DNA of 64,000 nt from an uncultured Solirubrobacterales bacterium (GCA_963702905.1 OY969769.1:17533-81532); one strand, 5' to 3'. Shown: positions 28,272 through 41,981, numbered from the stretch's first letter. Made by a program: numbers and translations. Notes: a model not told the origin generated them from the sequence alone.

Positions 28272-30167
28272 CTAGAAGTCGCCCCGGAGACCAAACATCC
28301 ACCCCTCCAGACCCGTCCGATGCGTCCAGCAATCCCCGCAAACTGAACGATCTGAACGCTCTCGGACCCATCTACACCCCCGTATCCGGTTGAGGGGCCT
28401 TATGGACCACATGGTCCGTGGTGGTTCGAGTCCACTCGAGCGCACCATCATTGCTGGACTAAAACCTCCACGCCAGGAATGGCGGGAGGCAGATACAGCG
28501 CCCACAGGAACCGACTTCGGCTCCTGTGGGCGTTCGTCGTCAGGCGCAATCCCCCGCTGGCGCAAAGCCTCGTCAACAGCTTTGGATAGCTCCTCGCCAG
28601 TTCTGGCGATGACAGCGCGCCGCAACTCCTCGCTAAGGATCGTGTCGAAGGGCTCCGCCAGTTCGCCCGTGATCGTGTCGTCGTCGCCAACCAACAACCG
28701 CCTAAAGAACGCGAGATTGAACTGTCGCCGCATGGTGGGCGTTGCTTCGCGGTAGGCCGCCTCGCAATCCCCAGCCCGCGTCAGGGCACGCTCTAGGTTG
28801 GCCTCGGCTACCTTGAAGTCGGCTTCAATCTCGGCTAGTTGGCCTTCGGCGTTGGCGATTCCGGTCGTGAGACGATCCTGCTCGCTCTTGAGCAGATCGA
28901 GCGGCACGGCGTCGGCGTAGTGCGCCTCCAATAGCTTCTTGCGCTCGGCTTCGAGCTTGCGTAGCCGCCGTTCCTGCGTCTTGCGTTCGCGCTCGGCGTC
29001 AACTCGGAGCTTGGACAGCTCCTCGCCCAGGAAGCTCCGCAAGGCTGCGACCTCCTCTGGGGGAAGCTGCACACTGGCGTAGTACGCCGCCACTCGCTCC
29101 TCCACAATCTCGATACGCATCGCCCGCAACTTGCAGTCGGTTCGTTTCTGTTGGCGGCCGATGCAGATGAAGTAGGGATAGGTGCCGCCCCGACCTTTGG
29201 CGTGGCAGACAATCAAGCGAGCCTCACACTGGCCGCAGTAGATGCTCCCCTTGAGGTAGTGGGGATGCTCGCGTTCCTTCTCACCGGCCAAGTGCTTGGC
29301 AGTCAAGAGCTTCTGAACTTCCTCCCATGTCTCGCGCGAGACAAGCGGCTCATGCTTGCCGGGATAGATGGCTCCCCGGTAGCGCACCAGGCCGACGTAG
29401 TAGGGATGACGCAGCAGCTTGTGCAGGTGCGAAACTGCCAGCGGCTTGCCCGGCCCTCGGGTTCCCGGCGCGGTCGTCAGGCCGCGCGCCGTCAGCTCCG
29501 CCAACACCCGGCGAATCGTCCACTCGCCGGTCGCATACGCCTCGAATGCCCAGGCAATGAGTGGCCCACGCTCGGGATCGACCTCGACGGTACGAACTTC
29601 GCGGCCGTTGACCATGCCGCGCACGTTCAGGTAGCCGGTGGGCGCGCGTCCCGGTGTGCCACCGTTCTTGGCCTTCTGAACCGTGCCCTTGATGACCTCG
29701 TTGGCCAAGTTGCGGCTGTAGAACTCGGCAATCGAACTCATAATGCCGTGCAACAGCAGACCCGAGGGCGTCTGGTCGATGTTCTCAGAGACGGACACCA
29801 ACTCGGCCCCGGCACGGTGGATCGCCAGATTGATCGCCACATCATCGGCGCGGTTGCGTGCCAGCCGGTCAACCTTGTGGACGATGACGTACTTGACGGG
29901 ATGCTCGACCAGGAAGGCAAGCAGGCGTTGCAGCTCGGGACGGTCGGCGGTCTTGGCCGACTCGCCGCGCTCCACGAACTCCTCAATCACTACGGCGCTC
30001 AAACTGGTCGCCTTACGCTTACAGCCCTCCCGCTGCGCCGGAATCGAGTAACCCTCGGCCTCGCCACCCTTTTCGGCTTGCTCCTTACTCGACACCCGCA
30101 GGTACATGACGGCAGCGGTCCCCTCCGAGCTGTCAGTTCTTGCCGTCATAAATAGTAATGGCTCCAT
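28272..30167 (-). CDS. Large serine recombinase (integrase); ORF reads through the att site
   Basis: YLRVSS catalytic Ser, SAKTADRPEL, HKVDRLARN, recombinase domain, Zn ribbon CGQC...C...C, coiled coil. Confidence 0.95.
   Translation of the reverse strand: MEPLLFMTARTDSSEGTAAVMYLRVSSKEQAEKGGEAEGYSIPAQREGCKRKATSLSAVVIEEFVERGESAKTADRPELQRLLAFLVEHPVKYVIVHKVDRLARNRADDVAINLAIHRAGAELVSVSENIDQTPSGLLLHGIMSSIAEFYSRNLANEVIKGTVQKAKNGGTPGRAPTGYLNVRGMVNGREVRTVEVDPERGPLIAWAFEAYATGEWTIRRVLAELTARGLTTAPGTRGPGKPLAVSHLHKLLRHPYYVGLVRYRGAIYPGKHEPLVSRETWEEVQKLLTAKHLAGEKEREHPHYLKGSIYCGQCEARLIVCHAKGRGGTYPYFICIGRQQKRTDCKLRAMRIEIVEERVAAYYASVQLPPEEVAALRSFLGEELSKLRVDAERERKTQERRLRKLEAERKKLLEAHYADAVPLDLLKSEQDRLTTGIANAEGQLAEIEADFKVAEANLERALTRAGDCEAAYREATPTMRRQFNLAFFRRLLVGDDDTITGELAEPFDTILSEELRRAVIARTGEELSKAVDEALRQRGIAPDDERPQEPKSVPVGAVSASRHSWRGGFSPAMMVRSSGLEPPRTMWSIRPLNRIRGCRWVRERSDRSVCGDCWTHRTGLEGWMFGLRGDF
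28388..28447 (+). repeat. Duplicate of the tRNA-Leu 3' half (anticodon loop to ACCA); att site
   Basis: ATGGTCCGTGGTGGTTCGAGTCCACTCGAGCGCA is identical to the tRNA 3' end; upstream part has a few differences; followed by CCA. Confidence 0.93.
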
Positions 30168-30231
30168 GCCGTAGACCTCACACTAATCGTTGTTAAGTCT
30201 ACCACAGACAGTATTAAAATGAACCATAAAC

Positions 30232-31053
30232 TCATGGTGAAACTCCGCTTAGAACATTGAGCGCGGAGTGCGAAGCGGCCACCATAAACAACCCCTCGGG
30301 CAGTGTCTTGTCCCGAGCGATGGCGCGCTGTATGCGTTTGGCCCTGGCCTCATCCGGTGCAATCCAGCAGACACGTGGGAACACCCCACCATGCGTAGCT
30401 TGCTCCTGACCAGACTGGTAATACTCAGCGTAGAAACGGCACTTACGCACCACCACTGGCAGACTCTCACTGTCACGGTCAACCTCTATAAACCACCGTA
30501 GCTCATACTCGCCTACCCCAAGCGCCACAAACGCATCGGGGCGCAGCACCCGCCGCCCGCTCATACTGCTGAACTCCCGCCAACAACGTGGCTCGGCTTG
30601 GCAGTCCAGCAGATCCAACAATGCTCTGCGCGAGGCCATTGTCACGTCTACGACGAGTTGAGCTATAGCCAGCGTGTGATCGACAAAGCGTAGTCCCGGT
30701 TCGTATGAGCGTCGCCGTGGGCCGTCTATCGCCAACACCCGCTGACCCACCGGCCCCAGCGCTAGCACCAAGCCCGCCGAACCAGCTCGCACCCCACCGA
30801 TCCGCCGCTCCAATCGGCTCAACAGTCGTTCGCGGGTCAACCGCTCAAGAACCCGCTGGCGAGCGCGCGTGGCGGCCCGCTCGTTGTCGTGCTCAGCAGT
30901 AGGGAAGTGGATAGCTTGAATCTGCCGTGCGCTCATCAGGCGCAGTTCGGCCATCTGCCGAATAATCGCCAGGTCGCGCTCGGCTAGGCGCTCACGAATC
31001 AACGCCACCCCCCTCGCCGAGATATACGGACGTACTGGTACAGCCTCCCTCAT
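30232..31053 (-). CDS. Replication-relaxation (Replic_Relax-like) protein
   Basis: N-terminal wHTH (RDLAII...RLMSARQI), DHTLAIAQL, RPDA...FIEVDR PD-(D/E)xK-like motifs. Confidence 0.82.
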   Translation of the reverse strand: MREAVPVRPYISARGVALIRERLAERDLAIIRQMAELRLMSARQIQAIHFPTAEHDNERAATRARQRVLERLTRERLLSRLERRIGGVRAGSAGLVLALGPVGQRVLAIDGPRRRSYEPGLRFVDHTLAIAQLVVDVTMASRRALLDLLDCQAEPRCWREFSSMSGRRVLRPDAFVALGVGEYELRWFIEVDRDSESLPVVVRKCRFYAEYYQSGQEQATHGGVFPRVCWIAPDEARAKRIQRAIARDKTLPEGLFMVAASHSALNVLSGVSP

Positions 31054-31354
31054 TCGCCGCCGCCATCCTTTTCTTTCGTAACCAAAGAAGCAGTGACGAA
31101 AGAAGTTGGGTTGGGTTGCACCCACCACTCGACGCGATGAGCACCCCCACCCCCCAAGTGCTGCTTCACCTCTGTTGATGCCCGCGCGCCACCGTCAGCT
31201 ACAACAATCCGCCGCTGCCCACCGCGCCGAAGCGAAAAGGGATGACACAAGTAGTGAAAGACTTTCGTTGCCAAAGTTCGGGCAGCAATAGCTTCCATAC
31301 ACGGGTTTTGGGGTTTGGGTGTCCACCCGATACGACAAGCGACACGACAGGCCC

Positions 31355-41550: not shown

Positions 41551-41604
41551 ACCGTTTGTGCCTCGAACTTCGTCCCATGATCCCTGGAGGATGGATACAA
41601 ACCT

Positions 41605-41937
41605 CTAGGTAGGCGGGGGTCCGATCCGATAGGTCGCGTAGGCGACGCACTCAAAACGTGGCTTCGTGCCGCGTGATCCCATTCGCAATGACCAACTGAC
41701 GGATTCTTTGGCTACAGGACGCCCCAACAATCGCTCCACGCCAGCTTGGACCTCTCTCGTCCGCATCGGTCCGCCAGCATCGCTAAGTACCCGCATGACG
41801 GCTCGCTGGACGACGCCATTGCCGAGACGCCGTGGCGTAGGCCCCGCCTGAGCGTGCGTAACCCTGGGCTTGACTCGACTTGCCGACAAGTCCAGAATGG
41901 ATTGAAGCCTTGGGGACGGGTTCGAGAGCTGTCCCAC
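41605..41937 (-). CDS. wHTH-like ORF (VGQLSNPSP...), proposed alternative C-terminus of the integrase
   Basis: VVQRAVMRVLSDAGGPMRTREVQAGVERLLGRPVAKESVSWSL; starts at the proposed right att; an ATG also exists at 41946. Confidence 0.5.
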   Translation of the reverse strand: MGQLSNPSPRLQSILDLSASRVKPRVTHAQAGPTPRRLGNGVVQRAVMRVLSDAGGPMRTREVQAGVERLLGRPVAKESVSWSLRMGSRGTKPRFECVAYATYRIGPPPT

Positions 41938-41981
41938 CAAGCGCATAGGGAATTGTCTGCAGTGGATGAGATAGTCCGAAA

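Follow-up and report, generated by a model that had tools for sequence, protein, structure and literature searches.

We analysed a 64,000-nt stretch of DNA (GCA_963702905.1 OY969769.1:17533-81532; hereafter the window, with positions counted from its first letter) from an uncultured bacterium, which flanking synteny with contigs of metagenome-assembled genomes (MAGs) places in the Solirubrobacterales. The window holds an integrated element of 13,501 bp (28445-41945, a length that includes the 6-bp core only in its right-hand copy), a conjugative or mobilizable chromosomal island that sits at the 3' end of a tRNA-Leu gene and encodes a large serine integrase. The element's own attachment site (attP) very probably lies within the integrase coding sequence, with the gene being split by integration and rejoined by excision. 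A preliminary description of the window had proposed such an arrangement, and our analysis supports its outline but moves the crossover.

The left side of the locus begins with lexA (minus strand, ending near 26400), to the right of which is an intact tRNA-Leu(gag) gene (26507-26594, plus strand), the ancestral target. A 1.8-kb islet (26595-28394) now stands between this gene and attL, the left attachment site of the integrated element. The B arm of attL is a 3' fragment of tRNA-Leu(gag) (28388-28444, plus strand) which runs from the anticodon stem to the discriminator A73 and carries the T-loop motif GGTTCGAG at 28423-28430. Within it, the 50-nt 3' copy at 28395-28444 is 94% identical to 26544-26593 (3 mismatches). 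The bounds of the element were set using the direct repeat AGCGCA, contiguous attP DNA from two relatives (L107 and L087) and two complete related elements (L180 and L149). It forms the 28445-41945 portion of a low-GC stretch (26-42 kb) in which GC content is 0.56-0.64, compared with 0.65-0.69 outside.

The integrase gene and the far-end reading frame

In the integrated state, the integrase open reading frame (ORF) occupies 28272-30167 on the minus strand and encodes 631 aa. Pfam identifies a Resolvase domain (PF00239, 1.1e-30, residues 19-170), a Recombinase domain (PF07508, 2.6e-12, residues 198-289) and a Zn_ribbon_recom domain (PF13408, 4.3e-08, residues 305-362), and the N-terminal resolvase-type domain contains the catalytic motif YLRVSSKEQ. 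An AlphaFold2 (AF2) model of the full-length homolog P0009, made with alignment A5 (alignment A3 was used for the locus scan), has long helices at residues 366-413 and 419-460 in the zinc-ribbon region. Judged by its sequence, the protein has the make-up of a large serine recombinase, i.e., a catalytic domain, a recombinase domain and a zinc ribbon with a coiled coil. Both Pfam and the P0009 model put all of these core domains before codon 575, so codons 1-575 (28443-30167, minus strand), which end ...GGFSPAMMV, comprise the complete core plus a linker.

The ORF has no stop codon before the 3' copy of tRNA-Leu, as the preliminary description had noticed. It instead continues across this copy in antisense (...GGFSPAMMV RSSGLEPPRTMW...), reading RSSGLEPPRT... 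and then reaching a stop at 28272. The resulting tail of 56 codons plus stop (28272-28442, minus strand) derives from the tRNA-Leu fragment, read in antisense, and from the islet next to it; it lies outside the element.

At the other end of the element is a second minus-strand ORF (41605-41946), which appears to be the 3' portion of the integrase gene, cut off from the rest. It consists of an ATG made by the junction (41946-41944), the codons for RLV, 109 further codons and a stop, and it reads MRLVGQLSNPSP... down to 41605. Residues 1-37 are a linker, and a winged helix occupies approximately 41620-41823. The preliminary description had pointed out that CACCA occurs at 28443-28447 and at 41935-41939, with the GTG codon in equal register, and that joining these two sites keeps the frame open for 684 codons; both observations are correct. 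Its placement of the attachment site inside the integrase ORF is borne out by homologs in which the gene is unsplit (P0009, L087, L107, P0292 and P0304) and by the frame being kept on both sides across the family. Its view of the far-end ORF as the gene's detached 3' part, carrying a winged-helix-like domain, agrees with both AF2 and Foldseek.

Attachment sites and the position of the crossover

The two copies of AGCGCA form a 6-bp direct repeat, with the attL core at 28439-28444 and the attR core at 41940-41945. Contiguous attP DNA from L107 reads, in tRNA orientation, GGGGTTTGAGAGCTGTCCTACCA-AGCGCA-CCATCATCGTCGGACTAAAACCTCC (core context ...GCTGTCCTACCA-AGCGCA-CCATCATCG...), which is the left half of the window's attR and the right half of its attL joined via AGCGCA. 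The P' arm of attP (28445-28472, CCATCATTGCTGGACTAAAACCTCCACG), whose minus strand encodes ...GGFSPAMM, is also found in the contiguous attP of L107 and L087 and in the attL of two further relatives, L002 and L180. The P arm (41905-41939, ...GGGACGGGTTCGAGAGCTGTCCCACCA) carries a second copy of GGTTCGAG at 41919-41926, and its minus strand encodes LVGQLSNPS.

On the host side, the B' arm (41946-41975, TAGGGAATTGTCTGCAG...) is native tRNA-Leu trailer and resembles the trailers TAGAGAAC (L003), TAGAAAATCCCTGCAAATC (L002) and TGGAGAAAGCCCGCAAATG (window 26595 onward). Several of the 44 attR flanks collected from the family are the reverse complement of a tRNA terminator. Native tRNA-Leu genes in the clade encode no CCA and continue as ...GAGCGCA|TAGAG, TAGAAAA or TGGAGAAA, and the window's right flank reads AGCGCA|TAGGGAATTG. 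By comparison with these native genes, the empty site of the element is ...CTCGAGCGCA|TAGGGAATTG, for which the predicted sequence is ...GTCCACTCGAGCGCATAGGGAATTGTC..., and the predicted circle junction is ...GTCCCACCA-AGCGCA-CCATCATTGC... (...GAGAGCTGTCCCACCAAGCGCACCATCATTGCTGGAC...). Scanning IMG/VR for the attP 17-mer ACCAAGCGCACCATCAT gave 29 matches, all of them chance matches in unrelated contigs, and three soil-metagenome contig sets aligned over 25500-43500 contained no informative joint.

The complete related elements locate the crossover more finely. L180 holds a 10.2-kb element at tRNA-Leu(CAG) beside ftsQ and ftsZ, and its junctions have only CGCA in common. L149 holds an 11.5-kb element at a non-tRNA site, and its junctions have only GCA in common. 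These shared bases point to strand exchange within the Val575 codon, at the GCA that ends the tRNA. This codon (28445-28443) spans the crossover and is GTG in attP and attL and ATG at attR.

attL and attR share 6 identical bp in the window, 4 in L180 and 3 in L149, and short sites with such minimal identity are consistent with the serine-integrase type. The spacing of the T-loop motif is informative as well: the distance between GGTTCGAG and the core is 8 nt in attB (the tRNA) and 13 nt in the P arm of attP, a shift of +5 bp. In the published signature of serine integrases, the distal motif is 5 bp nearer the centre in attB than in attP (PMC3783163), so the shift seen here would fit the rule for the distal (zinc-ribbon) motif. 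The P' arm has an inverted counterpart, CTAAAACC, at a distance of 14 nt, and a clear motif is present only in the left arms. That the element's integrase catalyses attP x attB recombination is something we infer from the same type of element occurring at three targets (the window, L180 and L149).

The L149 element (286-11923) interrupts ...CGACCTGCA|TGCAGCCCC..., and its integrase tail, QVDGPSANTLPELETLVELLMEPVGREARQRLL..., also occurs in P0013, P0040, P0054 and P0110, a recurrence which indicates a second recurrent target. L149 also adjoins another, distant conjugative module (TraD-like 36%, Replic_Relax 43%).

The preliminary description had put the exchange in the 5-bp CACCA, which would yield a 684-aa protein, a circle junction of ...GCTGTCC-CACCA-TCATTGC... 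and an empty site of ...GAGCG-CACCA-AGCGCAT.... Each end does contain CACCA, and joining there preserves the reading frame, but this placement is scarcely credible and was rejected, as four kinds of comparison contradict it. All contiguous attP sequences contain ACCA-AG[C/T]GCA-CCA, and the CACCA version is that junction without the extra AGCGCACCA; the L107 attP, with its AGCGCA context given above, differs from the proposed circle junction. Unsplit proteins of the window's attP type read V-xLV, i.e., they hold three codons (RLV) beyond the CACCA join. Native tRNA-Leu genes have neither CCA nor AGCGCAT after CCA, and they end ...GAGCGCA|TAGAG..., not in the proposed empty site. Lastly, attL and attR carry different sequences to the left of GCA in both L180 and L149, which puts the exchange to the right of CACCA. 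The relevant core is AGCGCA, the crossover is 9 bp away, and the rejoined window protein is 687 aa, reading ...AMMV-RLV-GQLSNPS....

Two other ways of delimiting the element were also discarded. The toxin-antitoxin islet and the tRNA copy are not parts of it, as the P' arm begins directly after GCGCA (at 28445 in the window, and likewise in L002 and L180). The 50-nt tRNA repeat is not the att identity used by the integrase, as it flanks the islet, not the element.

Relatives, the detached domain and the rest of the locus

Searching with the joined protein returned a very large family. Among the 120 closest integrases, which are 67-99% identical, at least 94 follow ...GGFSPxx[LM]V with peptides of the xxGLEPP type, which are antisense translations of a tRNA T-arm. 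The antisense tails fall into many classes (RMR, RPS, RSS, RAR, PRA and others) that match different tRNAs, and tail lengths among the relatives range from 5 to 286 aa, set by whichever tRNA was hit. The missing stop codon is therefore the rule in this family, and its recurrence takes the split pattern far beyond chance.

Database entries reflect this variability. For P0005, P0106 and P0115, the ORF crosses an antisense tRNA-Leu into a same-strand lexA, and the proteins are recorded as 854-866-aa recombinases with LexA domains; these fusions are gene-call artefacts (compare window 25754-26836). Another relative, P0010 (748 aa), has an additional partial resolvase catalytic domain at its N-terminus.

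The far end of the element is equally recurrent. When the 109-aa far-end peptide was used as the query of a profile-free search, 345 representative clusters were recovered, mostly of approximately 110 aa and matching from residue 5, with N-termini of the form M-(H/R/Q)-LVGQLSNPS. Across 44 independent copies, the flanking sequences are unrelated until the start codon, which is followed by C[G/A]C TTG GTA GGA CAG. A start in register is present in 40 of these 44 (ATG in 36, GTG in 4).

Far-end winged-helix ORFs also occur paired near tRNA-Leu in soil contigs (L102, L112, L114-L117, L119, L124, L127-L129 and L139), often without an integrase, and the L139 copy is frameshifted. Repeated insertion and deletion at a tRNA-Leu hotspot probably left these ORFs behind as fossils.

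The preliminary description had suggested searching for homologous integrases that carry VGQLSNP together with a winged helix, and this search did find unsplit genes. P0009 (687 aa, contig L001) has the integrase and the far-end domain in a single ORF, and it aligns with the rejoined window protein as one high-scoring segment pair covering residues 8-682 at 70% identity. L001 runs collinear with window 34672-28448 over its conjugation module and integrase, and the next similarity is to window 41817-41623. No tRNA was found in L001, of which 22 of 38 kb were readable. Other junction-spanning ORFs, all of the window's attP type (L087, L107, L113, P0131, P0134, P0292 and P0304), follow the pattern (M/L)V-xLV-(G/E/H)(Q/H)(L/I)(S/T)NP(S/T).

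P0009 belongs to a second attP type. It reads KILV-RATRVLSNQ (L001 11690-11730), stranded ORFs of this type start MRATQVSSNQ, and P0175 is listed with it. The same split logic thus holds with a different arm sequence. The core of this second type, ...CCGCA, fits a tRNA with antisense VRMRGLEPPP....

The detached domain has the features of a functional protein part. The AF2 model of the 113-aa orphan comprises three helices and a beta hairpin, with a predicted local distance difference test score (pLDDT) of 92-98 at residues ~41-90 and 80-94 from there to the end. The top Foldseek matches were the ZBP1 Z-alpha domain, the Rok DNA-binding domain and the N-terminal domain of RNA polymerase delta, with template-modelling scores up to 0.8, on small targets and with weak E-values (0.007 or worse). 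Pfam matches among far-end members were weak (HARE-HTH in 6 of 15, best 0.0033; WH_Rok in 4 of 15, best 3.4e-06), and the window's own copy matched neither of these families. The ratio of nonsynonymous to synonymous substitution rates (dN/dS) is 0.09-0.12 for the winged helix relative to its three closest copies and approximately 0.8 for the preceding linker (median across pairs). The winged helix is under purifying selection, and this low ratio together with the confidently modelled fold makes it a working part of a protein.

On the integrase side, the attP arm specifies the conserved peptide GGFSP, and on the far-end side LSNPS. The residues encoded by attP belong, in the P0009 model, to a linker (537-615, pLDDT < 50) between the core and the last domain. 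By analogy, the corresponding linker of the window's protein is predicted to be disordered. The rejoined long form ends ...YRIGPPPT, with no obvious ...LAA-type (ssrA-like) degradation tag, and the C-termini of its relatives vary.

Beside the integrase, two conjugation-related genes were recognised in the element. The first encodes a Replication-relaxation family protein (30232-31128, minus strand; PF13814, 1.4e-41), a putative relaxase or replication initiator, and is syntenic in L001, L002, L149 and L180. The other encodes a TraD/TrwB/FtsK-like coupling ATPase (31355-33520, minus strand; PF10412 5.9e-09, PF02534 1.1e-07), which is 70-88% conserved among relatives. With an integrase, a relaxase, a coupling protein and att sites at a tRNA gene, the element appears to be of the integrative conjugative or mobilizable type. 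It also contains an Xre-type helix-turn-helix (HTH) gene (37752-38000, plus strand; PF13560 7.5e-15), a possible regulator. Most of its other ORFs (e.g., 40297-41550, 36598-37341 and 36004-36588) had no family match in Pfam or PADLOC.

The islet to the left (26595-28394) has its own terminator directly after the tRNA, an Xre-type HTH gene (27378-27743, minus strand) and a Gp49/HigB-like gene within 27775-28371 (minus strand), and no integrase is present. Its appearance suggests a tRNA-targeting islet, decayed or non-autonomous, that was inserted later than the conjugative element. To the right of the element is a gene for a GH79-like protein (42550-44190), which has many paralogues/orthologues in varied contexts across Solirubrobacterales MAGs. 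The best 80 of its 111 confirmed relatives were taken as loci (L003-L082), and among these only L003 is truly syntenic. There, an unrelated 3.2-kb insert occupies the same tRNA (L003 6756-9950 versus window 26604-42646) between flanks that are 86-91% identical at the nucleotide level. The L003 insert marks the lexA/tRNA-Leu locus as an insertion hotspot, and the locus confirms the native tRNA trailer; with this other insert at the tRNA, a clean empty site was not found in this closest syntenic genome. Farther right, the coding-looking DNA beyond the element includes a 45-nt tandem duplication (48428-48517, 78% identical).

Interpretation and significance

Our favoured explanation, which taken as a whole we consider probable, is that the locus holds a 13.5-kb element of the integrative conjugative type whose attP is part of the 3' coding sequence of its own large serine integrase gene. 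Once the element is excised (or at a tandem junction), the gene would be continuous and encode a 687-aa protein made of the serine-integrase core, a linker and a C-terminal winged helix. Recombination between attP and the 3' end of tRNA-Leu, with strand exchange in the last tRNA bases (...GCA) and inside the Val575 codon, would leave the integrase with its core and make it read into the antisense tRNA, giving a meaningless tail of arbitrary sequence. The linker and winged helix would end up 13.5 kb away, preceded by an ATG that the junction creates and lacking expression signals of their own, and excision would restore the long form. In the long integrase of the free circle, the winged helix might choose or hold the attachment site, or regulate int. 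Its loss on integration would then alter the enzyme's abilities, which would amount to state-dependent control of integration versus excision.

The components of this explanation differ in strength. From the sequences compared, the split-and-rejoin architecture is very likely real. That splitting and rejoining alter how the integrase behaves (in site choice, direction or autoregulation) is possible, and we put it forward tentatively. Selection on the winged helix would most simply come from a role in the long integrase, and a directionality switch is a reasonable guess. We find it doubtful, though, that the covalent gain and loss of the winged helix is directionality control itself, in which case no separate recombination directionality factor (RDF) would exist and the long form would only integrate and the short form only excise, or the reverse.

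Several points count against the favoured explanation. Neither the circle junction nor the empty site was found in any read or contig, the sole available runs being soil metagenomes at ~2x depth. The one full-length unsplit gene, that of L001, may stem from a plasmid, from a circle or from the inner junction of a tandem array. The symmetry of the arms centres the site on a palindromic CG or GC, whereas the comparisons favour a non-palindromic CA. No binding target of the winged helix was identified, and any difference between the long and short integrases is hypothetical. Finally, the junction supplies a start codon in nearly every independent copy (the 36 ATG and 4 GTG among 44), leaderless translation is common in Actinobacteria, and a stand-alone winged-helix protein is therefore possible.

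This last point opens the alternative that, in the integrated element, the winged-helix ORF serves chiefly as an independent gene (e.g., for a regulator or excision factor) translated from an ATG made by integration, with the continuity of frame being secondary. Gene callers do list hundreds of ~110-aa far-end proteins and the sequence of the ORF is conserved, but so, across the family, is the frame it shares with int, which a stand-alone gene would not need. Similarly, far-end copies persist near tRNA-Leu/lexA where the integrase is gone, but some stranded copies are frameshifted or truncated (L139 and L092). Winged-helix proteins act as directionality factors for integrative conjugative elements with tyrosine recombinases (PMC11963761), which also counts for this alternative. 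Its expression signals are nonetheless poor. The ATG arises incidentally from the terminal CA of the tRNA and a host T, Shine-Dalgarno-like words precede it in 6 of 44 copies (11% in shuffled flanks, i.e., no enrichment), the window has no promoter-like site on the minus strand before it, and in several loci the tRNA terminator hairpin abuts it. We therefore judge the alternative to be unlikely. The preliminary description had named routine stand-alone use of ATG 41946 as evidence that would overturn its proposal; the ATG does prove to be routine, but its origin in the junction, the lack of Shine-Dalgarno enrichment and the upstream terminators speak against its use as an independent start.

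A more deflationary alternative is that the arrangement has no functional meaning: attP would overlap a dispensable end of int, both forms of the protein would act alike, and the winged helix would be a passenger. The integrated enzyme does retain every domain that defines a serine integrase, its tails vary freely (5-286 aa), and a few relatives (P0013, P0040, P0054 and P0110) have another short tail in place of the winged helix. However, strong purifying selection acts on the winged helix while the adjoining linker is nearly neutral, the domain is in frame in every unsplit copy seen, and it is present in 345 sequence clusters. This makes the passenger idea very unlikely, and a working winged helix in a self-splitting integrase remains the explanation that we prefer.

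Parts of this explanation resemble known systems. SSV1-type suicidal tyrosine integrases (SSV1, pTN3 and pT26-2) also carry the site of recombination inside the gene that encodes them; a 2021 review calls such enzymes exclusive to archaea, and the split is thought to preclude integrase-mediated excision and may leave the integrase inactive (PMC8371274). As in the window, the target is a tRNA gene, integration fragments the integrase gene and excision restores it. However, those are archaeal tyrosine recombinases, whereas the element's enzyme is a bacterial large serine recombinase in which the cut appears to follow the complete core (codon 575), so that only the accessory winged helix would be removed and the catalytic parts would stay together.

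Mycobacteriophage BPs and its relatives (clusters G, I, N and P) use integration-dependent immunity, in which attP lies in the repressor gene and the prophage form of the repressor is shorter at its C-terminus and differs in its properties from the viral form (PMC4557955). They share with the element an attP inside an ORF and an integration state that is written into a protein's C-terminus. There, however, the split gene encodes a repressor, the integrase is a tyrosine integrase, and the lost piece is a 33-residue tail including an ssrA-like degradation tag. In the element, the split gene encodes the serine integrase, which would lose a folded DNA-binding domain of ~70 aa.

Canonical large serine integrases (Listeria A118/LI, phiC31 and Bxb1) have the same set of domains, short att sites with few identical bases and the 5-bp motif shift. 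They differ in having attP outside the int ORF, the same protein in both states and a separate RDF protein; no RDF was identified in the element. In Tn4451/TnpX-type elements, which also use a serine recombinase, excision assembles a promoter at the joint and so creates an expression state that is absent when integrated. The joint makes a promoter there, whereas in the element it would make coding sequence.

C-terminal extensions have been raised as a possible alternative route to directionality in serine integrases, and engineered integrase-RDF fusions carry an accessory module covalently on the C-terminus of a serine integrase (PMC12286644). Such fusions serve to control the direction of the reaction (PMC5737554). 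The element is similar in that an accessory module would be tethered to the integrase C-terminus. The fusions, however, are permanent laboratory constructs, whereas attachment in the element would be natural, reversible and made by the enzyme's own reaction; treating the winged helix as an RDF is an analogy. If the gain and loss of the winged helix were itself the directionality control, the element would be a natural, self-resetting counterpart of these fusions.

Searches of open-access papers and preprints turned up no serine integrase with attP inside its own gene, nor any such element in the Solirubrobacterales, so we found no precedent for the self-splitting arrangement in bacteria or among serine integrases. 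The self-splitting principle would gain a bacterial case, and one from the unrelated serine recombinases, in which the enzyme is not disabled but loses an accessory domain. For the question of how direction is controlled in serine integrases without a known RDF, the family would offer a testable natural case, with two isoforms set by the state of the DNA. The arrangement would also explain the arbitrary C-terminal lengths of the family's database entries, including the false recombinase-LexA fusions, and would provide a simple rule for finding an attachment site: it is where the conserved ...GGFSPxx[LM]V ends. Enzymes of this type serve as genome-engineering tools, and those of the family appear to target tRNA-Leu genes by mimicking its T-loop and acceptor end.

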